Origin: an uncultured Bacteroidales bacterium
GTDB taxonomy: Bacteria; Bacteroidota; Bacteroidia; Bacteroidales; UBA10428
Assembly (NCBI GenBank): GCA_963821135.1
Contig: CAWGCR010000002.1
Location: 365,841-429,840 of the forward strand
Direction: 5' to 3'
DNA length: 64,000 nucleotides
The position numbers and the translations under genes are program-made. Positions 1,165 to 58,604 of the stretch are shown one piece after another. The number at the start of each line of letters is the position of its first letter. Position 1 is the first letter of the stretch. The notes under the pieces are model-generated. The model searched no databases. It saw nothing but the letters and a program-made list of their open reading frames with translations, and was not told where the DNA came from.

Positions 1165-1441
1165 AATAATGTGTTTTTAGATTTATAAATAAATTAACAT
1201 CTTACCTAATTAAAAACCTGTGCCAAAGTGGTTGTTGATATGAGTAAGAGCAAAATGAGCCCGGAATAAACAGCCACTACAGGCTGGTAACTTTGTTGTA
1301 TGACATTGAACTGAAAAAGCTATTTGAGGAATAATTCCTGCCAGATGTAGAAAATAACCACAATTTCAAAAGCAAAACACCTCTTTTTCAGCTATTAATG
1401 CTTTTGGAACAATTATTTCAGTAGCTATAGAAAACATCATT

Positions 1442-3277: not shown

Positions 3278-3346
3278 AGTGAAAAGCTGTATTGCCTTAT
3301 TCAGCTACTCAAGTTTTGTTTTGGTTGATTGTATAATGCTATGGGC

Positions 3347-9584: not shown

Positions 9585-9902
9585 TTAAGATTCCATGGGC
9601 ATTCCGGCATCTTTCCATTCTTTCTTTCCCCCTTCATAATCAAGCACATTTTTGAACCCCAGACTTTCGAGTTTCTTTGCTGCGGTTGGACTGGCAGAGC
9701 AATCGTAGTTTGAACAGTAAACCACTATTTCGTCCTCCTCACCGAACCATTGTTTTGCCCTAGTACCGATTTTTTTCAACGGAATATTAATGGCACCCTT
9801 GATGTGTGACTTTTTGAATTCTTCTTCATCGAGTACCTCAATCAAATGGATATTTGCATTTTCAAGTTTGTTCTTCAGTTCATCTTTGGTTATCGTCTTC
9901 AT
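9585..9902 (-). CDS. Rhodanese-domain protein (single-domain sulfurtransferase)
   Basis: 105 aa; active-site loop CSNYDCSAS with catalytic Cys. Confidence 0.75.
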   Translation of the reverse strand: MKTITKDELKNKLENANIHLIEVLDEEEFKKSHIKGAINIPLKKIGTRAKQWFGEEDEIVVYCSNYDCSASPTAAKKLESLGFKNVLDYEGGKKEWKDAGMPMES

Positions 9903-10211
9903 AAAAAATTATCCTTAAGTTTTTTATAGTAAAACAAGAGGTGTACCAAGTGCTGTTTATTTTGGTGGTTTCACCCGATGTCCTGTATAGTGGAGGAGAA
10001 TAGGAAAACAGACAAGCATAACCAGGAACAAGTTTGTGTAGAATATTTCCGAAAACTGTGGAATTAATACCCAAAAAATCGGTAATAATTATTCAGTGTA
10101 TCGGTTCTCAGAAATCGGATTGTCAGTGTAAAGCGAACATCGGTTGCCAAATACGGAATACCACGCAGAAAAAGGAACGGTTTTTTAAGCATTATACGAA
10201 AAGAAATAGCT

Positions 10212-19795: not shown

Positions 19796-21163
19796 TTATT
19801 GTCCTTTTCTTTTTAGCCGTCTTTTCCTACCGAGATAGAACAGTCCTGCAATAACCAGCAAGCCAACAATAATTAGTACACCCAGGAATTTTACCGCACC
19901 TGCTTTTTTTGCTCTTTTCGTATCAATTTCTGCTTGTTTTTCTGCCAAAAGTTTGCGTTCTGATGCAAGCTCGTATTTAATGCTTTCAATTTCAGTACGA
20001 TGGTTTTTCAAGTCTTCCTCTAAGGCTTCTAAAAGGCTTAAGTCACTTTCACCTTTTGCTTCCATAGCTTCTTCTTTTGCACCAGGCGATTTTTTTAATG
20101 CTGATTCCTGCTCTGATAGCAATGCCTCTTCCCTCTCTAATTGCGATTTTCGCTCAAGTAAATCCGACAATTCTGTACTGCTAACAAGAGCAATTTCGTT
20201 GTCGATGGAAGCTAGTTGTTTATTTATTTTTTGCTTTTGTTTGTTCAGTTTTTGTTCAGAATCTTTCAACTCCATCTTTTCTTCCTTTAGCATGACCAGC
20301 TCGCTGTTGAGCCTTTTTATTTCACCTTGTGTAAACGAATCAATGGTTTGCTTCCGGTTAAATTCTTTGGTCATCATATCAGTAAGATTTTTTTTGAGGG
20401 TGGCGAACTCATCCAACCATATATTGTTTGCTGAAACTATTTTTGTGGCCTTTTCGATTTTATCATTCTCGTTACCGATTTCTTCCTCAATATCAGCGAT
20501 TTTAGTGTCAAGCTTTCCAATTTCATCATCTCCTGCATTTTCAATAGTCAAATCGTTTTTCTCGCGTAAATAAATATTCTTTTCATCTTCGAACAGGGTT
20601 ATTTTTTGATTGGAAAGGTTAATTTTCTTTTTGTTGATGTCTATTTCTTTTTGTTTCGTAACTTTTTGTTTTTCAATTTTATCCAGGCGTTCGTCAATTT
20701 CTTCAATTCCAGTAACCATTACTCCCTTCGCTTGTTCTTTTTGTTCTATCAATTGGCCTTCCTTTATTTCCAATTTTTCCTTTTGATCATCCAAGTTGGC
20801 TAGTTCTTTTTTCAAGACTTTCAGACTGTCTTCAATAACATAAAGCTGTTCCTTAAGCCTTGACTGTTGCTCCTGCAAATCGCTTACTTCTTCTTTTTTT
20901 AGGGTTTGCTCAAACTCGGTGATTCTCTTTTCTACATCTTCCTTCTTTTTCAGAAGTTCCGATTCCTGCTTTTGCAACGAATCTTTAGCCCTATTATAAA
21001 ATTCTTCCGTTACTTTTTGCTCTTTTTCCAGCACTTCAACTTGCTTGTCAATAAGTTTTTGAGCCTCCTTTTTGTTGTCGGGCGATGTGCAGTTAACTAA
21101 TAATAGCATAAATGCAGTTCCCAAAATTAGTTTTCTCAGGTAGTATAAATTTTTCAGATGCAT
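19796..21163 (-). CDS. Long coiled-coil protein with N-terminal signal/lipobox-like Cys and C-terminal TM anchor
   Basis: 455 aa. MLLLVNCTSP near the N-terminus. ~400 aa of heptad-rich charged sequence. C-terminal hydrophobic helix (VKFLGVLIIVGLLVIAGLFYLG) plus basic tail. Confidence 0.55.
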   Translation of the reverse strand: MHLKNLYYLRKLILGTAFMLLLVNCTSPDNKKEAQKLIDKQVEVLEKEQKVTEEFYNRAKDSLQKQESELLKKKEDVEKRITEFEQTLKKEEVSDLQEQQSRLKEQLYVIEDSLKVLKKELANLDDQKEKLEIKEGQLIEQKEQAKGVMVTGIEEIDERLDKIEKQKVTKQKEIDINKKKINLSNQKITLFEDEKNIYLREKNDLTIENAGDDEIGKLDTKIADIEEEIGNENDKIEKATKIVSANNIWLDEFATLKKNLTDMMTKEFNRKQTIDSFTQGEIKRLNSELVMLKEEKMELKDSEQKLNKQKQKINKQLASIDNEIALVSSTELSDLLERKSQLEREEALLSEQESALKKSPGAKEEAMEAKGESDLSLLEALEEDLKNHRTEIESIKYELASERKLLAEKQAEIDTKRAKKAGAVKFLGVLIIVGLLVIAGLFYLGRKRRLKRKGQ

Positions 21164-21318: not shown

Positions 21319-21358
21319 AAAGTGTGGAATAACCAGGAAAGTGTGGAAAAATTCCCCA
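21319..21358 (+). promoter_or_regulatory. Bipartite direct-repeat/palindromic motif upstream of mlaD: AAAGTGTGGAATAAccaggaaAGTGTGGAAAAATTCCCCA
   Basis: Two TGTGGAA copies 19 bp apart. The second is embedded in the imperfect palindrome GTGGAAaaaTTCCcCA. Nearly the same 40-bp architecture recurs upstream of otsAB (56174-56214). Confidence 0.4.
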
Positions 21359-21509
21359 TCTGAAATTCTACCGAATACCTGAACAATACTCTTAAATAGC
21401 TGAATATCAGAAAATATGTGATTTTGTTAATGTATTGCACTGTATTTGCAACTCTTCATTATTGTACTAAAGATTTCAAAACAAATCAATTGCCCTTCTA
21501 AAAAGAAAA

Positions 21510-22493
21510 ATGAAAAATCGCGCACAAAAAATTAGGCTTGGTATATTTCTACTTATCAGCTTAACTGCATTGATATCAATAATAATATTTTTTACCGCCC
21601 GTGAATTTTTTGAAAAAGAGGATACTTACTATGTGTCGTATGAAGATATATCGGTTGGTGGGCTTGATATTGGAAGCCCTGTAAAATACATGGGTATTCA
21701 GGTAGGTACTATCAAAGATATCAGGATCGATCCTGAAAATGTAAATATTGTTGTAATAGAACTATCCCTAAAACCAGAAACGCCCATTAAAGAGGATGCA
21801 ATAGCAGATATCATTTCAATGGGCATAACAGGCTTAAAGGCGATAGAAATTAGTGGCGCCAGTAATAGTTCAAAATCATTGAAACCAGGGTCCTACATAA
21901 AGGCAGGGTCTTCATTTGCCGGGGAAATTACGGGTCAGGCTGAAATTATCGCGCAAAAGGCTGAAAAAGTATTGAACAACTTATTGTTGTTTACACACCC
22001 AACAAACCTTAACAAAATAACTCAATTGGCCGATAATGCCAGTAATACTATTTTAGATATGGATAGTATTCTGCTCGAGAACAGGCAGGATATCCGACAA
22101 GCAGTAGTTCCACTAAAGGATATTAGTGGTCGCCTTGACGAATCAAGCCGCTTATTACTTGCAACATTAGAAACTGTATATTTGAAAGTAAACAGCGATA
22201 CGATAAATGAAATATTTGCAAACCTGAGGGATGTTTCTGTAAAACTAAAAGAAACTGATATTAAATCGCTGGTTGACAATATTATATTAATTGCAAACCA
22301 AACTGAAGAGTTGCTCAGCAAAGTGGATAATGACCTGGAAAGGGGAGGCCAGGATTTTTCACAAAGCCTTGAATTATTGAAGTTAACGCTCGAAAATTTG
22401 AACAGAGCATCAATAAAAATTAATAACGATCCTTCTATTTTAATAAAAGGGGTAAGCTCTAAAAACACTCCTGATCATAATCTGAATAAATAA
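21510..22493 (+). CDS. mlaD: MlaD/MCE-domain protein (ABC transporter periplasmic substrate-binding component)
   Basis: N-terminal TM anchor then the MCE domain (YYVSYEDISVGGLDIGSPVKYMGIQVGTIKDIRID…). Long helical C-terminal region. Confidence 0.8.
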   Translation: MKNRAQKIRLGIFLLISLTALISIIIFFTAREFFEKEDTYYVSYEDISVGGLDIGSPVKYMGIQVGTIKDIRIDPENVNIVVIELSLKPETPIKEDAIADIISMGITGLKAIEISGASNSSKSLKPGSYIKAGSSFAGEITGQAEIIAQKAEKVLNNLLLFTHPTNLNKITQLADNASNTILDMDSILLENRQDIRQAVVPLKDISGRLDESSRLLLATLETVYLKVNSDTINEIFANLRDVSVKLKETDIKSLVDNIILIANQTEELLSKVDNDLERGGQDFSQSLELLKLTLENLNRASIKINNDPSILIKGVSSKNTPDHNLNK

Positions 22494-22496
22494 AAC

Positions 22497-23108
22497 ATGC
22501 GAAAACAAATCATTTACCCGATTATTCTTATTGTAGCTATATCCTGTGGATGCAGCAACCCAAACAAGATAATAAATAAGTATTATTTGCTTGAGAAACC
22601 AGATACCCTTCAATTTTCTGCTTTTACCAACAATCCATATCTTGATGGATATTGTGAAATAAGCCCTGTACATATTTATCCGGCGTTTAGCACTCAAAAT
22701 ATAGCAAATAGGAGCAATAATCGTGAAATTGTGTATTACAGTTATCATTTTTGGGCTCATCGCCCCGATGAATCTTTTACTTTATTGATTGAGGATTATT
22801 ATTCCCACTCTGCTGTTTTTAAGGGAGTATCGACCAGATATTGGAGGTTGAATCCTCATTACAGGTTGAGCACTATAATATACCAGTTAGAACTTGTTGA
22901 GCAAGGGAATTCGACTTCGGCGCACATATCTCTTGAATTCAGACTATCGAGAATTAGTGATAAAACAAGCCTGATAATTCACCGGGCCGATAAATCACAA
23001 ATACTTGAAATAAAAGATTTAAACTTATTTGCTGCAACAGTTGGGGAGTTGTTTTATAAGGAATTAAACACCTTCTCTGAAAAGATTATGAATTACGCGG
23101 CAAAATAA
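22497..23108 (+). CDS. Lipoprotein, probable ABC-type transport auxiliary component (PqiC/YmbA-like)
   Basis: 203 aa, lipobox (ILIVAISCGCS). Sits between mlaD and mlaE with a 3-bp gap. Confidence 0.45.
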   Translation: MRKQIIYPIILIVAISCGCSNPNKIINKYYLLEKPDTLQFSAFTNNPYLDGYCEISPVHIYPAFSTQNIANRSNNREIVYYSYHFWAHRPDESFTLLIEDYYSHSAVFKGVSTRYWRLNPHYRLSTIIYQLELVEQGNSTSAHISLEFRLSRISDKTSLIIHRADKSQILEIKDLNLFAATVGELFYKELNTFSEKIMNYAAK

Positions 23109-23118
23109 TGATTCTGTA

Positions 23119-24234
23119 TTGAAAAGAAATATCGACATAAGGACCTATAATTTCACTATTGAAGGCACAACGCTTTATTTATGTAATGCTTTATTAATAA
23201 GCAATGTAGGTGCATTTACAAAAGAATTGTTTGATAAACTAAAAGTGTTTAAATACAAGTTACTTGAAATTAATATTGACGAATTAGAGCGCATTGATAG
23301 CATTGGAGTTGCTACACTGAATTATGTAGAAAAGAAATTGGCAAAACGTAATATCGAAGTTCAAATAACTGGTGGCAATAATACTATTAAAAAGAAGTTA
23401 CTGACATTTTCACAAGAAAAATCCTTAAAAGAACACATTGTAGAAAGACCCAAATTTTTCGAAACACTGGGTGATAGCTTTTTCAGTTTTTTACATGATT
23501 ATTTAAAAAGGTTTATAACCCTTACAGCCAATATATTGTATTGGTCGGTAGTGGATATTTTTCATTCAAAAAGACAGCGCAAAGGTGAGTTCTATAACCA
23601 GGCTGTTCTTATTGGAGTGAATGCTGTTTGGATTGTTATGGCAATGTCCTTCATTATAGGACTTGTATTGGCCATACAATCTGCTTCTCAATTGCGTAAC
23701 CTGGGAGCTAACATATACATTGTCGACCTTACTGTAATTGCCATGATGAGTGAAATGGGCCCTTTAATTACGGCTATTTTAGTAGCCGGTAGAAGTGGTT
23801 CATCCATTGCTGCAGAAATTGCTACCATGAAGGTGACATCCGAAACCGATGCACTAAAAACTATGGGACTGAACCCTGTCCGCTTTATTGTAATTCCCAA
23901 AATGCATGGCAGTATTGTTACGCTGCCTTTTCTTACCATACTGGCAAATATTCTGGGAATATTCGGAGGTATGGTAGTTGCATATTTTTATCTCGATATT
24001 GGTTTTCAGGTATTTATTAACAGGATGACAGAATCGCTGTACAATCGTGATATTATAATAGGAATTGTAAAAAGCCTTGTATTTGCCTGCATTATTGTGC
24101 TTACCGGTAGTTTTTTCGGGCTTATGGTCAATAAAGGTGCCGAAGGGGTCGGAAAGGTTACTACCCAGGCTGTGGTTGTTTCTATTTCTTTGGTTTTTAT
24201 TGCAGATAGTATAATGGGTTTATTGTTTTATTAA
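23119..24234 (+). CDS. mlaE: MlaE-family ABC permease with N-terminal STAS (anti-sigma-antagonist-like) domain
   Basis: The C-terminal 260 aa carry the MlaE signature (GPLITAILVAGRSGSSIAAEIATMKVTSETDALKTMG). The N-terminal ~100 aa have a STAS pattern (…LLEINIDELERIDSIGVATLNYVEKKLAKRNIEVQITG…). TTG start per the ORF track. Confidence 0.75.
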   Translation: MKRNIDIRTYNFTIEGTTLYLCNALLISNVGAFTKELFDKLKVFKYKLLEINIDELERIDSIGVATLNYVEKKLAKRNIEVQITGGNNTIKKKLLTFSQEKSLKEHIVERPKFFETLGDSFFSFLHDYLKRFITLTANILYWSVVDIFHSKRQRKGEFYNQAVLIGVNAVWIVMAMSFIIGLVLAIQSASQLRNLGANIYIVDLTVIAMMSEMGPLITAILVAGRSGSSIAAEIATMKVTSETDALKTMGLNPVRFIVIPKMHGSIVTLPFLTILANILGIFGGMVVAYFYLDIGFQVFINRMTESLYNRDIIIGIVKSLVFACIIVLTGSFFGLMVNKGAEGVGKVTTQAVVVSISLVFIADSIMGLLFY

Positions 24235-24244
24235 TAGGATAAGC

Positions 24245-25000
24245 GTGAAGAAAATTATTCAAATAAAAAACCTTTCTGCATCCTTCGGCAATCGAGAAGT
24301 CTTGTCAGATATTAATTTTGATGTTTTCGAAAACCAGATAACTGTTATTCTGGGCATTAGTGGAGCCGGTAAATCCGTACTTTTAAAACATCTCCTGGGG
24401 CTTATAAATATCCAGGAAGGATCAGTTTCTATGTTCGACAAGAATCTCTCGGATTTAGAGGAGGAAGAGCAAAAACAACTCTATTTGAAGATAGGTGTTT
24501 TTTATCAGAACGGAGGCTTGCTCAACTCATTATCAGTTGCTGAAAACGTAGCCTTACCCCTGGAACAAAATAGTAACCTGAATGCGGAACTGATATCGCA
24601 TATTGTTAGGTCAAAGCTTAACCTGGTTAATTTGCTAGATGCTTATTATTTATATCCTTCCGAATTAAGTGGCGGCATGTTGAAAAGGGCTGCCCTGGCA
24701 AGAGCAATTGTAATGGAGCCTGAACTGATTTTTTGTGATGAACCCGGAGCAGGGCTGGATCCAATTTCCCTGGCCTCATTGGATGAATTAATACTAAATT
24801 TGCGGGAACAATTGGGCATGTCAATTGTAGTTGTTACGCACGAAGCATCCAGTATATTCAGGATTGCAGATCGGATTGTGTTTCTTGACGAGGGGAAGGT
24901 TATTTTTCAGGGGACATTGAAAGAGGCAGTGCAAGCAGACATTAAAAAAGTACAGGACTATTTCAGAATAGGCATGACTTCTCCCACCTTAATTCACTAA
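24245..25000 (+). CDS. mlaF: ABC transporter ATP-binding protein (MlaF-like)
   Basis: Walker A GISGAGKS, ABC signature LSGGMLKRAALARA, Walker B IFCDEPGAGLD. GTG start. Confidence 0.85.
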   Translation: MKKIIQIKNLSASFGNREVLSDINFDVFENQITVILGISGAGKSVLLKHLLGLINIQEGSVSMFDKNLSDLEEEEQKQLYLKIGVFYQNGGLLNSLSVAENVALPLEQNSNLNAELISHIVRSKLNLVNLLDAYYLYPSELSGGMLKRAALARAIVMEPELIFCDEPGAGLDPISLASLDELILNLREQLGMSIVVVTHEASSIFRIADRIVFLDEGKVIFQGTLKEAVQADIKKVQDYFRIGMTSPTLIH

Positions 25001-28739: not shown

Positions 28740-29332
28740 TTATTTTTTTGCAGTATTCCTTTCACTTCAAATTTTACAGTAGCCACATCATCCATTCCTG
28801 CCATTTGATGATCTACCTCATAATCTAATCGATTAATTTTAGCTTCGCCGGTAATTGAGATTTCAGACTTGCTTAATTTCTTGATATTGAAAAAGACTGT
28901 TTCCTCTTTCTCAATTCCACGTATCTTTAGTTTTCCTCTGGTTTGATATTCATAATCATTGGCTATAGTATTCTTAGCTACCTGTTACTTGAGAACTCTA
29001 TATGAGGAAATTTCTCTGTATAAAAGAAATCTTCGGATTTAAGGTTATCATCTCTTTTATCAATTCCTGTACTTATTAATGAAACATTTATAAGGGCATT
29101 AATTTTTGGCTTATCATCATTTTTAAAAAATACGTTAATAATCGGCATCTTACCTTTTGCATTAAAAATAAACATGTTACCTATTTTGAATGTAAGCTTT
29201 GTTTTCATAAGTATCAAAATCCCAATTGCCTTTGTATTTTTCGATTGATGCAGACTGCGGAAACATACTTAAACTAAATGCCATTAAAAGGATTATACTT
29301 AAAACTGTTATCTTTTTCATAATTAATTGCGT
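28740..29332 (-). pseudogene. YceI-like periplasmic protein, disrupted by at least two frameshifts
   Basis: Signal peptide MKKITVLSIILLMAFSLSMF (hand translation from 29332). The middle ORF (28978-29217) ends …DFFYTEKFPHIEFSSNR, which is YceI-like. A C-terminal segment is in another frame (…GEAKINRLDYEVDHQMAGMDDVATVKFEVKGILQKK*). Confidence 0.55.
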
Positions 29333-29595
29333 TTTAATATTTTAACCTATTTATTATTAGTATAGTATTAAAATTCTATGCCACGATTTACATCGTCTTA
29401 AGCTAAAAGAGCTTAAACAAAGCTCATTCAAGGAATATAGTTAATTAATTATTAAGAAAATGTTTTATTTAAAGTGTGAATAATATTGGAGGGTGTGAGA
29501 AATAATAACACCCAAGTTTTGAGACACTAACATTTCGCTTGATCTTTAAAATCAACTATATATTCTTTCATTGTAATGTTTTTATGGTTCAATAT

Positions 29596-29982
29596 TTAAA
29601 GTGAGGCAATTACTTTCTCCAACTTTCCCTTCACTTTTTTTGCTATTTCTGAAAGTTCCTTATTTTCAATTGCCTGTATAGATGCAAATGGGTCAACAGC
29701 TGCAATTTCAACCTGATTATCATCAAGCTGTTGTACAACAACATTGCAAGGCAACATGGTTCCAATTTTATCTTCTTTTTGTAATGCCTGATAAGCCAAA
29801 GGTGGATTACAAGCTCCTAAAATCCTATATTTTCTGAAATCAACATCCAGTTTTTCTTTAAGCTTATCATGGATATCTATTTCAGACAATACACCAAAAC
29901 CTTCTTTTTGGAGGTCTTCTTTGGTTTTTGCAATGGCTGATTCAAAATCTGTGTTCAATGTTTTTTCTATATAATACTTCAT
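29596..29982 (-). CDS. DUF302-domain protein
   Basis: 128 aa with the typical DUF302 pattern (…GFGVLSEIDIHDKLKEKLDVDFRKYRILGACNPPLAYQAL…MLPCNVVV…). Confidence 0.7.
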   Translation of the reverse strand: MKYYIEKTLNTDFESAIAKTKEDLQKEGFGVLSEIDIHDKLKEKLDVDFRKYRILGACNPPLAYQALQKEDKIGTMLPCNVVVQQLDDNQVEIAAVDPFASIQAIENKELSEIAKKVKGKLEKVIASL

Positions 29983-29993
29983 AACTATTTATT

Positions 29994-32089
29994 TAATGGT
30001 TCGTCTTCATTTTACGTTTTAATAGTTGTGCGTTAATGGCTACAATAATAGTACTCAAACTCATCAATACCGCTCCCATAGCCGGATTAATAAATATTCC
30101 GGCATTGATAAAGTACACCTGCAGCCAGTGGTATAGCCACCACGTTATAGCCTGTTGCCCAGATAAAATTCTGTATCATTTTTTTATAGTGTTTCTTTAC
30201 CAAACAGCACCAATGAAGCAATGTCTTTAGGATTACTGTTTACAAGAATAATATCTGCTGTTTCTGCTGCTACATCGGTACCCGAACCAACGGCAATACC
30301 TACATCGGCTGTCGCTAAGGCTGGTGCATCGTTAATGCCATCGCCGGTCATAGCAACAAATTCCCCGTTTTTTTGAAATTCTTTTATTTTTTCCAGTTTC
30401 TGGTCAGGTAATATTCCGGCAAAATAGCCATCAAGACTCAATTCATCACTTACGCTTTTAGCTACTTTTTCATTATCACCTGTCATCATATACAATTTCA
30501 GGCCATTGTTTTTTAATGTTTTTACGGCTTCATACGATTCCGGTCGGATTTCGTCTGCCATGGCAATAAACCCGGCTAATTCATCATCAACCATTACAAA
30601 AACAACTGTTTCCTGCTCATTTTTATATGCATTTTTCGGAATTTCAATGTTCATGTTCCTTGACATATCCGGGGCTTACAACCTTTACTTTTTTGTTATC
30701 TACATCTGCTTCAATGCCTTTTCCGGTAATGGCATTAAAATTTTCAGCCTCGGGTATTTCGATATCCTCTTCTTTTATTTTATCCATAATGCCTATAGCC
30801 AAAGGGTGCTCAGATTTCGATTCCAGGGCTCCTGCCATTCTTAAAATTTCTTTGTCATCGAAATCTATCATTCACAGATATATATCTTGTCACGCCGAAA
30901 TTACCTTTGGTAAGCGTGCCTGTTTTGTCAAATGCCAGCAAGCTTATTTTTCGGGAATTTTCGAAAGCTGTACGATTTCGGATTAATAATCCTTTTTGTG
31001 CCGAAATAGAAGTTGAAATAGCAACAACCAACGGAACAGCAAGCCCCAATGCATGAGGACAAGTAATCACCATAACACTGGCCATACGCTCTAAGGCAAA
31101 AACAAAAGGCTTACCAATGATTAACCAGGTGGTAAGTGTTCCAAATCCCACGGTAAGGGCAATAATAGTGAGCCAGAAAGCAATACGGTCGGCCAGGTGT
31201 TGGGTTTTCGATTTTTTGCTTCTGTGCATCGCGTACCATATTAATTACTTTATTCAGATACGCATCTTCACCAACCTGTTTAACCCTAATTTTTAGTGAA
31301 CCGTTGCCATTTATAGTACCTCCAATAACCTTATCATCATTTCCTTTTTTTACCGGTTTTGATTCTCCGGTTACCATCGATTCATTCACATTGCTTTCGC
31401 CTTCTTTAATAACGCCATCAACGGGAATTTTTTCCCCAGGACGAACCAGCACCCATCTCCTGATTTTAGCTCATCGACTTTTACATCTGTTGTATCCCCA
31501 TTTTCCAGTCGGTGCGCTTCGGACGGCATCATTTCCACCAGCTTTTGAAGCGAGCGAGAAGCACCCATTACGGATTTCATCTCAATCCAGTGGCCAAGCA
31601 GCATAATGTCAATTAAAGTAGCCAGTTCCCAAAAGAATTTTTTGCCTTCCAAGCCCAAATGTGGTTGCCGAGCTATACCCAAAAGCTACCGTAATTGCCA
31701 CTGCTATAAGGGTCATCATGCCAGGTTGTTTCTTTTTTAATTCATCCACCAAACCCTTAAGGAACGGCCAACCACCGTAGAAATAAACAAATGCTGATAA
31801 GGCTGAAAAGGACATAACCAGAAAAGCTAAATGTGAAACTATAACCTAACAAGCCTTGTATCAAAGGGGAAAGAACCAGTATCGGAATGGTAGCTATGAG
31901 CGAAACCCAGAATCGTTTCCGAAAGTCAGTAATCATCATGGCATGATGACCTGAATGGTCATGCGAACCGTGTCCACCGTGTTGGTGATTTTTATGTTCC
32001 TGGTGTTTATGTTGTTTATGGTCATGATTATGTTCTGAATGATTTTTCATTTGTTTATAATTTATTTCAATTGCCAAATGGAACCGCAA
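29994..32089 (-). pseudogene. copB: His-rich-N-terminus P1B-type (CopB-like) heavy-metal ATPase, fragmented into at least 8 ORFs
   Basis: Fragments in order on the minus strand. 31757-32089: His-rich N-terminus (HNHDHKQHKHQEHKNHQHGGHGSHDHSGHH) plus first TM helices. 31386-31815: TM helices. 31111-31452: actuator domain ([14 protein letters not shown]…). 30855-31229: TM and CPx region, then phosphorylation site (FDKTGTLT). 30184-30871: nucleotide-binding/HAD domain (MTGDGINDAPALA…). Hand translation of 29994-30150 gives the C-terminal TM (…WATGYNVVAIPLAAGVLY…AINAQLLKRK*). Confidence 0.8.
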
Positions 32090-32281
32090 ATAAATTTAAT
32101 CATCCTATTGTGTGAAAATTTGGACGATTAAATTTAAATGCTTGTTTCATAATACATCATTTTTATGTTCTTTCTATTGACACATGAAAATTTTATACCA
32201 TAAATAATTAGTTGCAATGTTTAGCTTGTATTGCCCATGTATTCAATAAAATGAATTTTAAATTATTTTAATTGTATTTAT

Positions 32282-32325
32282 AATGTGGTAACAAATCCAC
32301 ACTGTTATGAATTTGTTACCACATT
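32282..32325. promoter_or_regulatory. Perfect 15-bp inverted repeat (AATGTGGTAACAAAT-N14-ATTTGTTACCACATT) between the HMA-like gene and copB
   Basis: Read directly from the sequence. It is either a strong terminator-like hairpin downstream of the 32352 stop, or an operator in the copB promoter region. Confidence 0.45.
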
Positions 32326-32351
32326 CTTGCAAAATCTATGATTGAATCTTT

Positions 32352-32723
32352 TTAATGCATATGACCACTATGGTCTTCTTTCTTAGCAGGTGCTCTATCA
32401 TATTGACAACAGCCCGGTAATGCATTATAGGCTTCATCTTTCGCTTTGTGCATTTCTGTATCATGACCTGCTTTGGCTATAGCCATGTGAACTTTATGCA
32501 CATCGGTTTTGGTGCTGTCAAATGAAACCGCTATCATTTTGGATTCTTTGTTCCAATCGGCTGTTGTTAAACCATCAACTGATTTTGCTGCTTTTTCGAT
32601 ACGGCTTTCACACATACGGCAGTTTCCATATACTTTGAATTTTGCTGTTTTTGCTTGCCCAAATACCGTTGTTAAGCTCATCAGAGCTATTACCATTGTT
32701 AAATAAATTGCTTTTGTTTTCAT
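32352..32723 (-). CDS. Secreted HMA-like metal-binding protein (CxxC + C-terminal CCQY)
   Basis: 123 aa, signal peptide, GNCRMCESRIEKAA (CxxC in an HMA-like ferredoxin-fold context) and PGCCQYD near the C-terminus. Confidence 0.55.
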   Translation of the reverse strand: MKTKAIYLTMVIALMSLTTVFGQAKTAKFKVYGNCRMCESRIEKAAKSVDGLTTADWNKESKMIAVSFDSTKTDVHKVHMAIAKAGHDTEMHKAKDEAYNALPGCCQYDRAPAKKEDHSGHMH

Positions 32724-32751
32724 ATCTTAAAATTTAATTGATTAGTAAAAA

Positions 32752-33039
32752 TTACTCTCTTGTATACTGGCAGCAAGAAGGTAGATTTTCATATGCTTCC
32801 TGCGATGCTGTTTCTTTTTCTGTATCATAACCAGCGTTGGCTATTGCTTTATGGATTTCAGATAGGTTTACTTTATCCTTATTATAGGATAGGTGTATTT
32901 CCTTAGTTTCAGTACTCCATTCTGCCAAATTAACGCCTGTCAAACTGCTTGCAGCTTTCTCAATTGTAGATTTACACATTTCACAATTTCCTGAAACCTT
33001 AAACATGGCTTGTTCTATATTGGCATCCATATTATTCAT
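32752..33039 (-). CDS. HMA-like metal-binding protein, paralog of 32352-32723 (CxxC + CCQY)
   Basis: SGNCEMCKSTIEKAA…PSCCQYTRE. The ORF track extends to 33075, but that portion overlaps the 3' end of the upstream adaptor gene. The start is probably MNNMD… at ~33039. Confidence 0.5.
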   Translation of the reverse strand: MNNMDANIEQAMFKVSGNCEMCKSTIEKAASSLTGVNLAEWSTETKEIHLSYNKDKVNLSEIHKAIANAGYDTEKETASQEAYENLPSCCQYTRE

Positions 33040-33063
33040 TTTAGGTTCAGGTTGTTGGTGTGC

Positions 33064-34444: not shown

Positions 34445-34462
34445 CTTAATTTGTATTTTTAA

Positions 34463-35719: not shown

Positions 35720-35754
35720 GTATACCTTTTCTTTTAATGATTTAGACATCTTTT

Positions 35755-40090: not shown

Positions 40091-40096
40091 TATTAC

Positions 40097-50104: not shown

Positions 50105-50587
50105 AATTCATACTTTTTAAATGTCTGCCTGTTGGCAGACGTGGTTCAACATTGTTTTTATTTAAGTATTCGTATTATTTAATAAGAAAATTGCATGCCA
50201 AGCTGATTTGATTCAATGCAAACACCTTGGTATTTAGTACGTTGAGGGATAATTACAAATTTTTGGCTACTAAGTAATTTGTTGAATAAATCCACAAGTG
50301 GTGGAATGAGTTCACAGCCCGAGGGGTATATCAATAAATAAAAATACAGTTATAAGTCAATTGCACAGCATATTACAATAAAAGGCAATTATTGAGATAT
50401 TCCGGCATCAAATTGTTACAGTTTCAACATTTAATATGAAGGATATTATTTTGTTGGGAAACTATGCTCACCAAATGGTTAATAATTCGACAATACCTGT
50501 AATTTTGTTACCGGCAAAATAATTTGAGATAAATTCAGAGTGTTTTAAGACACAAGGCATTGACTACTAACCTACAATAACGAAAAT

Positions 50588-51682: not shown

Positions 51683-53047
51683 CTATTTTAATACTTCAAT
51701 CTCATATAGCTTAATCTTATTATAAAGTGTCTTGCGATCGATATTGAGTAGTTTAGCTGCCTTAGACTTATTGTAATTTGATTCAATCAGTGCATTTGAT
51801 ATCACCTCCTTTTCTGTGACTTCGGTAGCTTCTTTTAAATCTGTTAAAGCCTTGTTTTGTATGGCCGATTTCATTTTTGTGGAGCTGGTTTGAAAACTAT
51901 TCCGTAACCTGATTTCATCGGGTATAACCTCTGAGGTAATATATTCATGATTAGACAGTAATACAGTTCTGTTTATTACATTTTGAAGTTCACGGATATT
52001 TCCATACCAGGGATATTGGTAAAACAATTCTTTTACCTTTTCGTCTATACCTAAAATATTCTTATTAAAACCCTTGTTTGCTTTTTGAATGAAAAAGTTG
52101 GTGAATTCTAAAATGTCATCACCTCGTTTTCTTAAGGCAGGTAGTTTTAATTTAAATCCATTTAAACGGTGGTAAAGGTCTTCCCTGAACTCGTTTTCTT
52201 CCAGTTGTGGTAACAAATCTTCGTTTGTTGCTGCAATCACCCGCACATCTGTCTTAATGGTTTTGTTATCGCCAACTTTGCTAATTATCTGTTCTTGAAG
52301 CGCCCTTAACAATTTAACCTGGTTTTCATAAGGCAAGTTTCCAACTTCGTCTAAAAACAGGGTGCCACCTCTGGCAAGTTCAAAGTATCCTTTTTTGTCG
52401 TTAATGGCTCCCGTAAATGCACCTTTCACATGCCCAAACAATTCGCTGTTGGCCAAATCCTTGGGTATTGCACCGCAGTCAACTGCAACAAAAGGCTTAT
52501 TTTTCCGATTGCTGCTATAATGTATTGCTCTGGCAATGTATTCCTTCCCTGAGCCGGTTTCCCCCTCAATAAGTACTGTTAAATCAGTTGGAGCTACAGC
52601 CTTTACATGCTGCATTACTTTAAGCATTTCCGGACTTTTGCCGGAAATAAAATCTTTTTCAAAAGAAATATCTGTTTCCTTTTGCTTTCTGGATTCAATA
52701 GCCCTGTTTACAAGCTGTAAAATTTCTTCGGGTTGTATTGGTTTGGTAACATAATCAAAAGCTCCTGCTTTAATCAGTTTAACCGCCATTTTAACATCGG
52801 CATAAGCGGTCATGATTATAACAGGAACAGTTGCTTTTTTAGTTTTTATGTGCTGCAGGATTTTTAAGCCATCGGAATCGGGCAGCCGGAAATCGCATAA
52901 AATCAGATCAAAATTTTCTTTTTCGGCTAACTTAATTCCTTTTAAGCCTGAAATGGTTCCCTCGGTTTTAAACCCATTCTGAGCAAGGTATTCGACTAAT
53001 AAATTACAGATGTAGGAATCGTCATCAACAATTAATATTTTTTTCAT
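51683..53047 (-). CDS. Sigma-54-dependent response regulator (NtrC family: REC + AAA+ + Fis-type HTH)
   Basis: REC (ILIVDDDSYICNLL…D54-like). Walker A GETGSGKE. GAFTGA motif (ELFGHVKGAFTGA). C-terminal HTH (KAAKLLNIDRKTLYNKIK). Confidence 0.85.
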   Translation of the reverse strand: MKKILIVDDDSYICNLLVEYLAQNGFKTEGTISGLKGIKLAEKENFDLILCDFRLPDSDGLKILQHIKTKKATVPVIIMTAYADVKMAVKLIKAGAFDYVTKPIQPEEILQLVNRAIESRKQKETDISFEKDFISGKSPEMLKVMQHVKAVAPTDLTVLIEGETGSGKEYIARAIHYSSNRKNKPFVAVDCGAIPKDLANSELFGHVKGAFTGAINDKKGYFELARGGTLFLDEVGNLPYENQVKLLRALQEQIISKVGDNKTIKTDVRVIAATNEDLLPQLEENEFREDLYHRLNGFKLKLPALRKRGDDILEFTNFFIQKANKGFNKNILGIDEKVKELFYQYPWYGNIRELQNVINRTVLLSNHEYITSEVIPDEIRLRNSFQTSSTKMKSAIQNKALTDLKEATEVTEKEVISNALIESNYNKSKAAKLLNIDRKTLYNKIKLYEIEVLK

Positions 53048-53211: not shown

Positions 53212-53583
53212 TCACTTAGTATCAAAATAAATAACCCCTGCATTTATTTCCTTTTCTTTTATTTCTTGCGTAATGGGCTCTTTTAAATAATCGGGAACAA
53301 CCAGGTAGAAATTACCATTGTTTTTCCTTGCATAAAGGGAAAGCATCCGCCACTTTTCAACAGGCATAGTTTTGTTTAATTCAATTTCGTATACTGTTGT
53401 GCTGTTGTCGAAAATTGCAGCAATGTCTGGAGTATATCCTTCATCTTTTCCTTTTAATGAAATTTTGTTCGGACTATCGTATCCAATTACATGTTTTGTT
53501 TTAATGGCTTTTGGTTTTCGCTCTTCTTCAATTTTTGTTATTACCGCCCGGGTAACCATTGATTTATCTAATGCTTGTGCCAT
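53212..53583 (-). CDS. Hypothetical protein (123 aa), no recognised domain
   Basis: Isolated ORF between the NtrC-type regulator and otsAB. Flanked by AT-rich intergenic DNA. Confidence 0.35.
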   Translation of the reverse strand: MAQALDKSMVTRAVITKIEEERKPKAIKTKHVIGYDSPNKISLKGKDEGYTPDIAAIFDNSTTVYEIELNKTMPVEKWRMLSLYARKNNGNFYLVVPDYLKEPITQEIKEKEINAGVIYFDTK

Positions 53584-53682: not shown

Positions 53683-56110
53683 TCATCTTGTTAATTCTTT
53701 CTCCAAAAATTTGATCTTTTGTTTATTTTTAATTCTCTGATTTGATTCTGCCAGTTTCCTTAATAACCCCCGTACTTCTTTAAACGATTCTAAGTGGTAT
53801 TTTGCCAGTGTTTTATTGATACCCGCCTTTATAGTAATGGCTGAATCAGGTAATTCCTCATACAAATTTTCATCGGTATAATCATCACCAATGGCCAGGA
53901 CAAAACAACGTTCACATGTATTCAAATATTCCACCGCAGATTTTCCTTTGTTAAAAACACTACTTTTTATTTCAATTACTTTGTTTCCCTCGATGATTTC
54001 CAGTTCCTGGTTTAATATCAGGTTGTTTAATTCTTCTTTTAGCTCAACAGCACAGAAATACCCAGGTCGGGATCAGTATTTCTGTAATGCCAGGAAATGG
54101 AATGTGTTTTTTCTTCAATTAAACTTGCAGGTGTTCGGTCGGTATAGAATTGCACTATGGGAAGAACAATATCCTTCCATTCATCCTTTAAAGAACCATT
54201 TTGAAGGTTTACCCAATTTTTAGCCGGTTCTTTAATCCACACCCCATGTTCCACTATTAGGGTATAATCTTTTGTGGAGAACCATTGGTCGAAAGTCTCT
54301 TTTCCCCTGCCGGTAATCAATACTACGGTGGTGTTATCATTTTTCGAAAGTGTGTCCAGAATATGGTATAATTCTTCATCGGGTTTTGCTTTCCGTGGGC
54401 TTTTTTGGTAGTTTACCAATGTGCCGTCATAATCCAGGAAAAGGACTCGCTTCTCTGCTTTTTTGTATTGTTCTACAATTTCATTCTCGATTACCGGGCT
54501 TATCTTCTTCGATAAGTATTTTTGTTGGATAACCGGCATATTATTCAGACTTTGAATAAAGTCTGATGCCCAGCGTTTCACATCGTATCGCTTGATGTCG
54601 CTCGCGCAAAAAGGTGTTTATTTCTATTTGTTCATCTACAGGCATTTCCAATGCTTGTTTAATGGCATGGGCTATTTCATTTTTATTGTTTGGATTTATC
54701 ACGAGGGCTTCATTCATTTCTTTATAGGCGCCGGCCATTTCACTTAAAATGAGTACACCGGTATTATCAGTGCGGGAGGCCAGGTATTCCTTCGCCACCA
54801 GGTTCATGCCATCACGAACCGGGGTAATTAAAGCAATATCACACGAATTATAAAGTTCAATCAGGTTATTGAAGGGAAGTGAACGGTAAAAATACCAGAT
54901 TGGCATCCAGTTTATCGAAGCATATTTTCCATTAATACTGCCCACCAACTCATCAATTTCACTTTTCATAATTTGGTATTGCTCTACATTTATGCGAGAA
55001 GGTACAGCCAGCATAAGCAAGTGTTACTTTCCCATGATATTCTGGATACTTGTTCAAGAAGTGTTCAAAAGCAGTTAACCTGTTGGGAATACCTTTTGAA
55101 TAGTCAAGCCTGTCGATTGAGAGTATCAATTTGCAGTCCGGGTTAACCTTATAGAATTTTTCAATTTCTGCTTTTATTTCTGATTGTTCGTCTGGCTGGT
55201 TTTGTCCACTCAATAATGCAGCGCTGTTAAACTTTTCATAATCAATGCCCATTGGAAATGCATCGGTTTTAACAATGCGGTTTTCTAAATTAATCTGATT
55301 GAAATATGTTTCGTGACCGAAAAGACGCCTTACACTACTTAAAAAATGCCGTTCGTAATCGTAGGTATGAAAACCAATTATATCGGCCCCAAGCATGCCT
55401 TCGAGCAGCTCTTCCCGCCAGGGCAATACCCGGTATATTTCGTAAGACGGGAAAGGGATGTGCAAAAAGAATCCAATAGAAACATCAGGAAATTCCTGCC
55501 GAATGAGTTTAGGTAAAAGCAATAAGTGGTAATCGTGTATCCATATTTTATCGCCCTCTTTAATATTTTTTAAAATAGCTTCTGCAAACTTCCGGTTAAC
55601 CCGTACATATGCATCCCATTGATTATCTTCGTATTCCGTGAATTGCATAAAATAGTGAAAAAGTGGCCAGATGGTTTTGTTGCTAAATCCCGTATAGTAT
55701 AGTTCTTCATCTTCCTTATCGATATAGACCGGTATGCAGTTTTCCTGGCTCAAACGGTTTTCAATAGTATTTTTTGTGTTTTTTGAAATCTCGTTTTCGC
55801 CAAATCCCGGCCAGCCATACCATTTACTTTCATAATTCTTATATATTGATTTCATGCCTGTTGCCAGTCCGCCTACGCTTGGAGTGATTTCGATAGATTC
55901 ATTATCGCTTATGTTAATCGTTTGTGGCAACCTGTTTGATACTATTATCAGTCTTCCCATATTCTTTTGTAGTGTTTTGTATAGTGCTTTTTCAGCCAAA
56001 CCTGTGCCATAAATACTTTTCTTCATTTTATTTCTGCTGATTGAGTAATTTTTGAACTGTGTTCGATTATCTAATAGCTTAATAGTAAGAACTGATATGT
56101 GTGAACACAA
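53683..56110 (-). pseudogene. otsAB: Bifunctional trehalose-6-phosphate synthase / trehalose-6-phosphate phosphatase (OtsA-OtsB fusion), split by at least 3 frameshifts
   Basis: 54959-56110 has the GT20 OtsA N-terminus (RLIIVSNRLP…GGLATG…WIHDYHLLLLP…GFFLHIPFPS). 54541-55020 has the OtsA C-terminus. 54039-54581 has OtsB (VLFLDYDGTLV). 53683-53934 has the OtsB C-terminus (LAIGDDYTDENLYEEL). The true start is probably MGRLII… near 55965. Confidence 0.8.
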
Positions 56111-56173: not shown

Positions 56174-56214
56174 TGGGGAAATATTCCACAATACCGGAGA
56201 GTTTATTCCACAGT
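56174..56214 (-). promoter_or_regulatory. Second copy of the bipartite motif, upstream of otsAB (minus strand reads cTGTGGAATAAactctccggtatTGTGGAATATTTCCCCA)
   Basis: Same architecture as 21319-21358: TGTGGAATAA, then 12 bp, then TGTGGAAtAtTTCCCCA. Confidence 0.4.
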
Positions 56215-56255: not shown

Positions 56256-58604
56256 TTATTCGAGTTCACTTTTTAATTGCACATTTAATTGCTGCATGGC
56301 TTCAATTGTTTTATTGAGCAACCCCGGAACGGTTTTGTAATCAGGGTTAATCAATGTCTTCGTTTTTATTTCTGTTAATTCTGAGGTAATCTCGTGTGCT
56401 TCGAGATGCCTGAAAGAAGGTAAAATTTTATGGGCAGATTCGCCTATCTGAGCCCAATTTTTATCTTGAAGGTATTGTTGAAATTTTTGAATGGTGTTTT
56501 CTGAATTTTCGATAAAAGTATTTAGCATATTAATCATTCCTTCTTTATTCCCGACCATTTTTTTTAATTCCTCAAGGTTATATGGCTTGGGGCTGATTTC
56601 TTCCTTTAGGATGATTTCCTCTTTTGGCTTATCGTATGCTTGATGCTTAATTTTGAGTACTTCGCACATTTTATTAAAAAGGTGAATTTCTTTGAAGGGT
56701 TTAATAATAAAATCGTTAATACCGACTTTAAAATATTTTTTAATGTCGTCCTTCATTACAGCAGCAGTAACAGCAATTATCTTTGTTAAGGAGTCGTGTT
56801 TTTTATACCGGAGATGTCTGGCAACCTCAATACCACTTATATCAGGCATGTGAATGTCGAGTAACACAATATCGTACTTGTTTTTTTTAAGCATTGCAAT
56901 AGCTTCTTCACCATTGTTGGCGATGTCAAAATAGCAGTTGAATTTTTCAAGTATTGTCTTACCCAGTAATCGGTTCACGCTGTCATCATCAACCAATAAA
57001 ACTTTTTTGTCTCGGAGTTTTTCGGAGTCGATAGTGCCCAAATCATCAGGGAGAATATCCGTTTCTTTGCCTTTCCGATAAGGGATAATAAATGTAAAAG
57101 TTGTTCCGATATTTTCCTGGCTGGTAACCGATAAGCTTCCATTTTGCAGTTCAATGAGGTTTTTACAGATAGTGAGACCCAGCCCTGTCCCTCCATATTT
57201 CTTGGTTATACTCGAATCTGCTTGTTTAAACTGCTCAAATATATATTCAAGCTTTTCCGGTTTAATTCCAATGCCAGTATCAATGATGTCGAACCTCACT
57301 TTCATTTCGTTATCGGTCTCCTCTTTAAGAAAGCAGCGAAGTTCAACGTACCCGCTATTGGTAAATTTTATTGCATTACTTAACATATTGATAAGGATCT
57401 GACGAAGCCGAAATGAATCGCCCATCAGTACTTTATCCAGTTTTTTATCGATACTGTACATAAACTGCAGGCCTTTCTCCTCAGTTTTTACCAGCAGTGC
57501 ATTATGTACATATTTAACGGTATATTCTATCTTAAATGGGGTGTTTTCAATATTGATTTGGCGGGCTTCAATTTTAGAAAGAATCAAAATATCGTTAATA
57601 AGTGAAAGCAGATGTTCTGATGATTTATCAATGATGTTAACATAATCACTTTGTTTTTTATCTAATTCAGTTTGTTTTAATTGCTCGGTAAATCCTAAAA
57701 TAGCGTTTAACGGAGTTCGTATCTCATGGCTTACCCGAGCTAAAAACTCGCTTTTTGCGCGGTTTGCCTTTTCAGCTTCTTCTTTTGATTTTTTAAGCTT
57801 TTGTTCGTTTAGCTTATCGTCCGTAATGTTTTGTGTTATAGCAATACCTGAATAAATATCGTTATCGCTGTTTTTTAAAGGGAGCACCCATATTAAATAA
57901 TAGTAATTGTTGAATTTGTACTCCGTTGATGTTTCTTTACCATCTAAAGCGATTAAAAACAGTGGCTCCCATATTTTTTTTATTTGCTTGCTGGATATTT
58001 CTTCTAAAAGTTTTCCTTCAAAATGGTTACGGGTAAAGCCATTGTTCTTCATTTCAGCCCCTTCGGCAAGTACAAAGCGCAAATCATTATCGAATAAATA
58101 TAAGTTAATATCGGGGATATTATTTGCCAGGATTCGGTAAAGATTAACATCTTTCTGGAGTTCACGCTGATTGTTTATATAATCGGAAACATCCTCACCT
58201 GAAAGAAGAATACCCAGAAATTGTTTATCACGGTTTTTGATAATGCTAATTTTAGCCTCCAGTATCCTGGTTTTTTTGTCCTGTGTTATTAATGCGAAAC
58301 GGGTTTTTCCCAAATTAGGCACTTTTCCTTTAGCCAGGGAATTCAATAAATTGTGCATTCTACGTCGATCCTGTTCAGCAATGTGCCTGTCCACAAAATC
58401 ACTTCCAATAATACTACTTTCCTTAGCAGATAATAGTACTCGTCCCTTTTTATTAATCAGGGTTAACTTTCCTTTTTCATCAATTGCCGCAACGAAAACC
58501 CCAACGATATCAAAACATTTTTGTACTAGCTCCGATTCAAAAATATTTTCCGAATCAATGATAAAAATGTCCTCAATGATCTTTGAATCAAAGGTTTTAA
58601 CCAT
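56256..58604 (-). CDS. Hybrid sensor histidine kinase (PAS-PAS-HisKA-HATPase_c-REC-Hpt)
   Basis: 782 aa. H-box (SHEIRTPLNAILGF), G-boxes (DTGIGI…GGTGLGL), receiver (VLLVDDDSVNRLL…D), C-terminal Hpt-like helical region (HKILPSFRHLEA). Confidence 0.85.
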   Translation of the reverse strand: MVKTFDSKIIEDIFIIDSENIFESELVQKCFDIVGVFVAAIDEKGKLTLINKKGRVLLSAKESSIIGSDFVDRHIAEQDRRRMHNLLNSLAKGKVPNLGKTRFALITQDKKTRILEAKISIIKNRDKQFLGILLSGEDVSDYINNQRELQKDVNLYRILANNIPDINLYLFDNDLRFVLAEGAEMKNNGFTRNHFEGKLLEEISSKQIKKIWEPLFLIALDGKETSTEYKFNNYYYLIWVLPLKNSDNDIYSGIAITQNITDDKLNEQKLKKSKEEAEKANRAKSEFLARVSHEIRTPLNAILGFTEQLKQTELDKKQSDYVNIIDKSSEHLLSLINDILILSKIEARQINIENTPFKIEYTVKYVHNALLVKTEEKGLQFMYSIDKKLDKVLMGDSFRLRQILINMLSNAIKFTNSGYVELRCFLKEETDNEMKVRFDIIDTGIGIKPEKLEYIFEQFKQADSSITKKYGGTGLGLTICKNLIELQNGSLSVTSQENIGTTFTFIIPYRKGKETDILPDDLGTIDSEKLRDKKVLLVDDDSVNRLLGKTILEKFNCYFDIANNGEEAIAMLKKNKYDIVLLDIHMPDISGIEVARHLRYKKHDSLTKIIAVTAAVMKDDIKKYFKVGINDFIIKPFKEIHLFNKMCEVLKIKHQAYDKPKEEIILKEEISPKPYNLEELKKMVGNKEGMINMLNTFIENSENTIQKFQQYLQDKNWAQIGESAHKILPSFRHLEAHEITSELTEIKTKTLINPDYKTVPGLLNKTIEAMQQLNVQLKSELE

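Follow-up and report, generated by a model that had tools for sequence, protein, structure and literature searches.

A tandem 40-bp element in a Bacteroidales genome as a probable enhancer for an NtrC-family regulator at sigma-54 promoters of stress and envelope genes

The NtrC site is a 17-bp dyad of 7-N3-7 geometry, TGCACCA-N3-TGGTGCA, and at glnAp2 of enteric bacteria such dyads stand in tandem ~100-140 bp upstream of a -24/-12 promoter, where they are bound by a response regulator with REC, AAA+ and Fis-type helix-turn-helix (HTH) domains. Here, we analyze a 40-bp element that lies upstream of both mlaD and otsA in a 64-kb stretch of the genome of an uncultured Bacteroidales bacterium (contig CAWGCR010000002.1, positions 365,841 to 429,840; hereafter the window). 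The element resembles the glnAp2 enhancer in its tandem dyads, in their distance from a -24/-12 promoter and in the domains of its predicted binder, a response regulator encoded in the same window. It differs from glnAp2 in its half-site, TGTGGAA, in the sensor, which is a PAS hybrid kinase, and in its targets, which are stress and envelope genes rather than nitrogen assimilation genes. The window regulator also scores below every NCBIfam equivalog cut-off (NtrC, 402 versus 559 bits; AtoC, 422 versus 714; ZraR, 361 versus 760) and thus falls into an unnamed, uncharacterized subfamily. The second system to compare is ZraSR-ZraP (HydHG), in which a sigma-54-dependent two-component regulator activates its own operon, as is predicted here; in many Bacteroidota an adjacent small secreted protein gene is a further predicted target, and the JGI label for these regulators is 'HydG'. 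However, the kinase here is of the hybrid PAS type rather than a periplasmic zinc sensor, the small targets have no detected relation to ZraP, and the regulon in the Marinilabiliales (to which we assign the window organism, its MlaD being 74% identical to that of Carboxylicivirga marina) is much broader.

In gene content, the predicted regulon recalls that of RpoS in E. coli, whose classic targets include osmY, otsBA, yceI, osmC and superoxide dismutase (SOD) genes. This is a functional analogy only: an OsmY-like BON protein, otsBA, yceI and SOD recur here and osmC in the relative L131, along with Usp and ferritin-like proteins, whereas control is proposed to run through a sigma-54 promoter and a phosphorylated enhancer-binding protein (EBP) rather than through an alternative sigma-70-family factor. 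To our knowledge, the Bacteroidota have no RpoS. Hardly any work has addressed sigma-54 regulons or the proteins that activate them in this phylum, and a full-text literature search, with most subscription journals outside its coverage, returned no description of the motif or the regulator; the mechanism is textbook, and the regulator, operator and regulon look new. A 2025 survey predicts Bacteroidota sigma-54 promoters before chaperone, protease and transporter genes (PMC12316311). Term searches of that survey gave no hit for trehalose, for Mla or for upstream activating sequences, and its osmoregulation and MscS passages concern Planctomycetia.

We consider it likely that the element acts as an enhancer (upstream activating sequence) composed of paired sites for a dimeric NtrC-family EBP at sigma-54 promoters. 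What the computation shows is the sites and their statistics, the promoters paired with them, a spacing that is conserved, and regulator and kinase genes that co-occur with the motif across the Bacteroidota. Both copies are built as TGTGGAATAA, a spacer and then the 17-mer TGTGGAAWAWTTCCCCA, which has two exact matches in the 64 kb. An earlier sequence-only reading of the window had reported these copies, and we recovered them at the same coordinates, with the same letters and the same spacers of 9 and 12 bp. The second half is a near-perfect palindrome, TGTGGAA-N3-TTCCACA (17 bp, 7-N3-7), a symmetry that supports the earlier description of it as an imperfect dyad predicted to bind a dimeric factor; the first half is an extra copy of the left half-site that starts 19-22 bp before the dyad start. 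The general layout of a site is therefore a 17-bp dyad, TGTGGAA-N3-TTCC(C/A)CA, plus a second dyad or a lone TGTGGAA about two helical turns upstream. The element is indeed shared by the mla and otsAB upstream regions, as that reading held, and is not confined to them, since weaker copies occur elsewhere in the window. Its common orientation toward the downstream gene was likewise confirmed at sites B (mlaD) and C (otsA); across the window, sites occur in both orientations.

These sites are more frequent than chance would give. With up to three mismatches, TGTGGAAWAWTTCCCCA has eight matches in the window versus 1.32 expected, a number reached in 0 of 100 shuffles, and 7 of 11 dyads with up to three mismatches are intergenic. 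Half-site clusters, defined as at least three TGTGGAA (one mismatch or fewer) inside 45 bp, number five versus 0.84 expected, with a maximum of four among 200 shuffles; one of the five (54235-54279) falls in the otsB coding sequence and is probably a chance occurrence. Alignment and a repeat search showed no likeness between the two regions past ~40 bp, so a longer repeat, a miniature inverted-repeat transposable element or another mobile element was rejected, and an Rfam search of the window returned no known RNA family.

The window holds at least five, and probably seven, tandem sites, each 93-181 bp from a predicted, gene-directed -24/-12 promoter (Table 1). At sites A-E and G, the tandem starts are 19-22 bp apart. 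Promoters were scored with a sigma-54 position weight matrix (PWM) built from 25 promoters, all from genomes other than the window's; the site-adjacent promoters rank 1, 4, 5, 6, 8, 11 and 20 among 128,000 strand positions (binomial P ~1e-8), and all seven face the start of a gene, with the site behind them. When close relatives were also excluded from the matrix, five site clusters were still paired with promoters, and six loci with an mlaD homologue and no regulator gene (109 kb in total) gave one borderline site-promoter pair. A predicted -24/-12 promoter is present at sites C, D, E, A and G, with spacings of 96-181 bp; the candidate at site B departs from consensus at -24. Over the whole window, the spacings are 93-96, 101, 105, 116 and 181 bp, which fit DNA looping; those of 93-96, 105 and 116 bp are close to whole helical turns, in a small set of numbers. 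Weaker sigma-54-like matches face the opposite direction from site D (CGGCATCAAATTGTTA, 50403-50418, +, toward the MscS gene at 50588) and from site E (TGGAACAATTATTTCA, 1405-1420, +, toward the DUF308 gene at 1442), and the enhancers at these two sites may work bidirectionally, as that of the relative L128 appears to.

Table 1. Element copies, tandem sites, predicted sigma-54 promoters and associated genes in the window
Feature	Coordinates	Strand	Remarks
Element upstream of mlaD, AAAGTGTGGAATAAccaggaaAGTGTGGAAAAATTCCCCA	21319-21358	+	Read from window
Element upstream of otsA, cTGTGGAATAAactctccggtatTGTGGAATATTTCCCCA	56214-56174	-	Read from window
Site A dyads, TGTAGAATATTTCCGAA + TGTGGAATTAATACCCA	10037..10073	.	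20 bp apart
Site A sigma-54 promoter, TGGTACACCTCTTGTT	9933..9948	-	PWM rank 11; 105 bp from site A; before rhodanese gene
Site B dyad (promoter-proximal), TGTGGAAAAATTCCCCA	21342..21358	+	7-N3-7, 1 mismatch to TGTGGAA-N3-TTCCACA
Site B distal site	21323..21339	+	Left half TGTGGAA (21323-21329) alone matches; 19 bp start-to-start to dyad
Site B sigma-54-like promoter, TTGCACTGTATTTGCA	21435..21450	+	PWM rank 8; 93 bp past dyad start, 60 nt before mlaD ATG
Site C proximal dyad, TGTGGAATATTTCCCCA	56174..56190	-	17-mer match
Site C distal half-site, TGTGGAA(TAA)	56196..56212	-	22 bp upstream of dyad
Site C sigma-54 promoter, TGGCACAGGTTTGGCT	55994..56009	-	PWM rank 1; 181 bp past dyad, ~35 nt before probable otsA ATG
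Site D dyads, TGTTGAATAAATCCACA + GGTGGAATGAGTTCACA	50280..50316	.	20 bp apart
Site D sigma-54 promoter, TGGCATGCAATTTTCT	50185..50200	-	PWM rank 4; 96 bp from proximal dyad; precedes BON x6 gene
Site E dyads, TGAGGAATAATTCCTGC + TGTAGAAAATAACCACA	1325..1362	.	21 bp apart
Site E sigma-54 promoter, TGGCACAGGTTTTTAA	1210..1225	-	PWM rank 5; before 131-aa membrane protein gene
Site F (doubtful)	near 29470-29510		Weak TTCACA-type half-sites only, ~90-125 bp upstream of promoter
Site F sigma-54 promoter, TGGCATAGAATTTTAA	29368..29383	-	PWM rank 6; before YceI-like gene
Site G tandem TGTGGTA.../TGTGGATTTGTTACCACA cluster	32284..32323	-	Found as half-site cluster; weaker than other sites
Site G sigma-54 promoter, TGGTATAAAATTTTCA	32185..32200	-	PWM rank 20; 101 bp past site G; before P-type ATPase
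Sigma-54-dependent response regulator (REC, AAA+ sigma-54 activator, HTH_8)	51683..53047	-	Domain search; proposed motif binder
Hybrid histidine kinase (PAS, HisKA, HATPase, REC)	56256..58604	-	Probable cognate sensor
123-aa conserved protein, function unassigned	53212..53583	-	Between otsAB and regulator gene
otsA-otsB (GT20 + trehalose phosphatase)	54039..55960	-	Three open reading frames, apparent frameshifts
mlaD, auxiliary lipoprotein, STAS-MlaE, MlaF operon	21510..25000	+	Putative site B target
BON x6 (OsmY-like) gene	48605-50104	-	Then SDR, Fe/Mn-SOD, EncFtn, encapsulin genes, same strand
Rhodanese gene	9585-9902	-	PDH E1 gene next
131-aa membrane protein gene	769-1164	-	Site E target (predicted)
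P-type ATPase (frameshifted) + DUF302 gene	~30184-32089 (ATPase)	-	Site G target (predicted)
YceI-like gene (frameshifted)	28978-29320	-	Promoter rank 6, doubtful site F

The same arrangement recurs in close relatives. The regulator orthologues of L128-L130 are 67-84% identical to the window protein, and in these three loci the kinase gene is followed by a dyad with its sigma-54 promoter, the 123-aa gene, the regulator gene, another dyad with its own sigma-54 promoter, and then BON, SOD or Usp genes. The dyad directly after the kinase gene reads TGTGGAATTATTCCCCA in L130, TGTGGAAAAACTCCCCA in L128 and TGTGGAAAATGACCACA in L129, and the 123-aa gene always lies between this site and the regulator gene (L128, 9520-9891; L129, 9462-9833; L130, 9501-9872). 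L131 (Maribellus) keeps the second half of the arrangement, with the regulator gene followed by a dyad, a promoter and a P-type ATPase gene; neither a kinase gene nor a 123-aa gene precedes the regulator gene there. The tandem site after the regulator gene has a sigma-54 promoter 93-96 bp away in L128-L131, and beyond it come genes for BON, SOD, EncFtn-encapsulin, Usp or P-type ATPase proteins. L130 and the window have orthologous sites before the BON gene, with a dyad-promoter spacing of 96 bp in both, compared with 93 bp at window site B. The site G target type, a P-type ATPase, is thus also found after the regulator gene in L131, and the Maribellus orthologue of the 131-aa target of site E likewise has a sigma-54 promoter. 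Site, promoter and spacing are therefore conserved for the BON/SOD/ATPase sites and the kinase-downstream sites and not for mlaD.

Beyond these relatives, we scanned public genomes (one per species) for loci picked by the 17-mer alone, which gave at least 120 loci, at least 57 of them with Bacteroidota names. Among the matches listed, at least 15 loci hold full-length homologues of the window regulator (39-53% identity, tblastn) and many of these also hold a hybrid kinase gene; outward matches to a generic sigma-54 consensus are ~10-fold enriched 40-260 bp from the 17-mer, and such a match lies 80-121 bp away in 10 of 15 regulator-linked loci. Genes for an EBP that carries an HTH domain at its C terminus thus lie near the motif in the window, in these loci and in L128-L131. 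The HTH segment, NKSKAAxLLxIDRKTLYNK, is 71-95% identical among motif-linked regulators versus 40-54% over the full length, and an unlinked paralogue (L069) has a different DNA-binding helix. A stereotyped layout is shared by Bacteroides, Prevotella, Parabacteroides, Alistipes and Alloprevotella: the regulator stop codon is followed by TGGGGAA-N3-TTCCACA and two to six more TTCCACA repeats, by TGGCACG-N4-TTG(C/T)G ~100 bp on, and ~90 nt later by a small secreted-protein gene ('MKK...'). Gut and rumen Bacteroidales (L016, L035, L066, L070, L093, L101, L108 and L119) carry operator arrays of four to seven TTCCACA/TGGGGAA units between the regulator stop and the next gene, and the sole adjacent target of these arrays is a ~100-aa secreted protein, which is low-complexity and Asp/Thr/Pro-rich in Prevotella and Bacteroides. 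By eye, the small secreted target in Pedobacter (L003), Fontibacter (L031) and L065 looks like a PepSY-type domain.

In the mechanism that we propose, the PAS hybrid kinase (56256-58604) would phosphorylate the response regulator (51683-53047), which would then bind the tandem sites and assemble an active AAA+ oligomer; through DNA looping, the oligomer would remodel the sigma-54 holoenzyme at a -24/-12 promoter ~95-180 bp away. The regulon would comprise otsAB with the 123-aa gene and the regulator gene itself, the BON/OsmY-like gene with the SOD, EncFtn and encapsulin genes that follow it, the rhodanese, small membrane protein and P-type ATPase genes and, with less certainty, the mla operon. 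Along the minus strand, the kinase gene is followed by site C, its promoter, otsAB, the 123-aa gene and the regulator gene, so that the regulator would be autoregulated if transcription from the site C promoter continues through it. Binding by this regulator, activation rather than repression, the signal sensed and the extent of each transcription unit past its first gene are what we infer from these data. The gene content of the predicted regulon points to a response to osmotic, oxidative and envelope stress. Paired promoters and shared sites also lend support, at the level of DNA sequence, to the proposal of the sequence-only reading that the element is regulatory and that several envelope and osmotic-stress operons form one regulon.

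Several observations weigh against this proposal. No rpoN gene lies within the 64-kb window, and the choice of the regulator at 51683-53047 over other EBPs of the organism rests on gene neighborhood. The 39-53% identity to the Bacteroidales regulators lies in the range of NtrC-family paralogues, so orthology is unproven, and with respect to the promoter the dyad has one polarity in Marinilabiliales and another in Bacteroidales. Several predicted promoters are off consensus at -12 (TTTTC, TGGC and TTTAA). The candidate promoter of site B combines an ideal -12 (TTGCA) with a 93-bp spacing of the conserved class, but its -24 is TTGCAC in place of TGGCAC, whose GG is near-invariant. Finally, the upstream regions of mlaD in six relatives (52-74% MlaD identity; the window protein is 74% identical to MlaD of Carboxylicivirga marina) have neither the motif nor a sigma-54 promoter. 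The sequence-only reading had called the element conserved, which applies to the sites after the kinase gene and before the BON gene; the footprinting it had suggested for mlaD found the motif missing in 6/6 relatives, and control of mla is thus lineage-specific at best.

The mla operon is accordingly the weakest link of the proposed regulon, and we only slightly favor control of mla by site B. Less probable in our judgment is that the motif is an EBP enhancer and that site B acts not on mla but on the coiled-coil lipoprotein operon that diverges from it (19796-21163 and downstream), or is without function. The lack of the motif in the six relatives and of the first G of the GG doublet in the rightward promoter speaks for this alternative, as do enhancers placed between two divergent promoters, which do occur (L128), and the GH127, GT2 and LPG-synthase genes, located after the lipoprotein gene in the window and downstream of the regulated cluster in L130. 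However, the sole sigma-54 PWM match of at least 4 in the 346-bp intergenic region faces mlaD (11.8) and the 93-bp spacing of site B belongs to the conserved 93-96 bp class, whereas no credible leftward promoter was found for the lipoprotein gene, the only candidate, CGGATT...TTGCA, being very weak (PWM score 0.7) and rejected. A metagenome scan for MlaD relatives gave two distant loci only.

We next consider readings in which the element is no enhancer. That it is an operator for some other dimeric factor at sigma-70-type promoters, such as the Crp/Fnr-like regulator at 59128-59712, which binds cyclic nucleotide monophosphates (cNMP), or a factor of the Rex or LysR type, appears improbable. 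Its TGTG...CACA ends recall CRP and Rex boxes, but the geometries differ (CRP, 5-N6-5; FNR, 5-N4-5; Rex, 7-N4-7; versus 7-N3-7 over 17 bp here). Site A lies between the NDH-2 and rhodanese genes, the site B promoter can be read as an imperfect -7 box (TGTATTTG), and in two loci (L021 and L085) infA is preceded by a Bacteroidota sigma-A -7 box that has the 17-mer ~30 bp upstream of it; against this, nothing ties such regulators to the motif in other genomes, whereas EBP and kinase genes and -24/-12 promoters repeatedly co-occur with it. Among the trans-acting candidates put forward by the sequence-only reading, the evidence points to the NtrC-like regulator and the hybrid kinase; the Crp/Fnr candidate fits neither the 7-N3-7 geometry nor the way the motif travels with EBP genes across the phylum. 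The same reading had also entertained a promoter for an extracytoplasmic function (ECF) sigma factor with a GGAA-like -35; in this view, TGTGGAATAA would be the -35 and the second repeat would act as the -10, which we regard as very improbable. The GGAA(T) core resembles some ECF -35 boxes and the element is oriented as the downstream gene at sites B and C, but at sites A, D and E the paired promoter is on the opposite side of the sites, the element as a whole occurring in both orientations. Moreover, the distance between repeats varies from 19 to 22 bp where ECF spacers are rigid (~16-17 bp), the second repeat is palindromic, no conserved CGT-type -10 is present, and the distance to a downstream -24/-12 promoter (~95-180 bp) is conserved. 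Least credible of all are DnaA boxes, origin-like repeats or iterons, a reading that we reject. In its favor, TGTGGA(A/T)AA approximates the reverse complement of TTATCCACA, the site B dyad holds one relaxed box (TTWTNCACA) and some 17-mer loci (L084) carry dense TTCCACA/TGTGGAA arrays, but only one (21342) of the 11 relaxed boxes in the window is within a site, no site is near dnaA or dnaN, and the 7-N3-7 symmetry, the paired -24/-12 promoters and the linkage to EBP genes would be left unexplained.

Returning to the enhancer, we put forward tentatively, and as less probable than not, a wider proposal: that Bacteroidota run a general stress response (osmotic, oxidative and envelope) through one conserved PAS hybrid kinase and EBP with sigma-54 and a phylum-wide operator, TGTGGAA-N3-TTCCACA, with a large clustered regulon in Marinilabiliales and arrays before a small secreted protein gene in gut Bacteroidales. 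If this were true, the Marinilabiliales regulon would take in trehalose synthesis, OsmY-like protein, SOD, encapsulated ferritin, Usp, OsmC, YceI, P-type ATPase and possibly Mla. The regulon predicted here has the make-up of a general stress response, and a specific operator sequence can be tied to a specific regulator-kinase pair. That operator is conserved in marine Marinilabiliales as well as in Bacteroides, Prevotella, Parabacteroides and Alistipes of the gut. For annotation, the gains are a pattern for regulon searches, a corrected otsA start and a reason for long, seemingly empty upstream regions.

The corrected start follows from the position of the otsA promoter, which sits past the first two in-frame starts; the true start is most likely ATG 55960 (product MGRL..., just before the GT20 domain), not 56026 or 56110. 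The 123-aa protein matches no Pfam or NCBIfam family and shows no obvious signal peptide, and it may modulate the kinase-regulator system. The kinase gene itself is probably transcribed from a housekeeping promoter, judging from aaaaatctattcgcTAttTTTG, which is nearly identical upstream of this gene in the window (58610-58650, -) and in L128 (6480-6520) and contains the Bacteroidota sigma-A -7 box (TAnnTTTG). A dyad with a TTGCAY variant of the -24 upstream of the L128 kinase gene was rejected as a sigma-54 promoter, which it probably is not, given that it overlaps the sigma-A -7 box (TAttTTTG); the window has a similar TTGTAT stretch at the same spot with the same overlap, and L130 has the dyad and the TTGCAY variant without a sigma-A -7 box there. 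Near the sites and under no assigned promoter are two MscS channel genes, an SLC12 transporter gene, a DJ-1/PfpI gene and a second trehalose-phosphatase gene with a GH65 phosphorylase gene. A DDE transposase gene (insertion sequence; 60402-61547, -) lies just beyond the kinase and cNMP-binding regulator genes. Many genes in 28900-45950 and 54039-56110 are split into two to four adjoining open reading frames, among them otsA-otsB and the encapsulin (45095-45927), PfkB kinase (44147-45083), GH65 phosphorylase (40128-42523), P-type ATPase and YceI-like genes, which suggests that the assembly contains indel errors or that pseudogenes are widespread.

Some 17-mer loci are of a different kind. Many matches in other phyla fall in coding sequence, for example in YceI ('DVEKFP') and GH15 ('WGNFPQ') genes, and these are false positives for pattern-based regulon searches. 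The coding 17-mer TGTGGAAAATTTCCCCA is present in Sphingobacteriales, within GH15/glucoamylase-like genes that adjoin otsA, and also in YceI genes (L023, L029, L090, L095, L097 and L116; L027, L082 and L083). In the two infA loci, both from Chitinophagaceae, the copy reads TTCCACAaaaaTGTGGAAaatTTCCCCA and the -7 box TAtcTTTG, no sigma-54 promoter is present, and the copies represent either another use of the same site or a chance match. In L084 (~3190-3790, minus strand), a Verrucomicrobia bin, dense TTCCACAgTGTGGAA palindromes and GCGTGGAAAA repeats accompany six relaxed DnaA boxes within 600 bp, in a region that is not beside dnaA or dnaN. In L104 (12-48), a Tannerellaceae bin, two 17-mers form a perfectly inverted pair with 4 bp between them (TGTGGAAAAATTCCCCAtaacTGGGGAATTTTTCCACA), and a hybrid kinase gene lies upstream of the pair.

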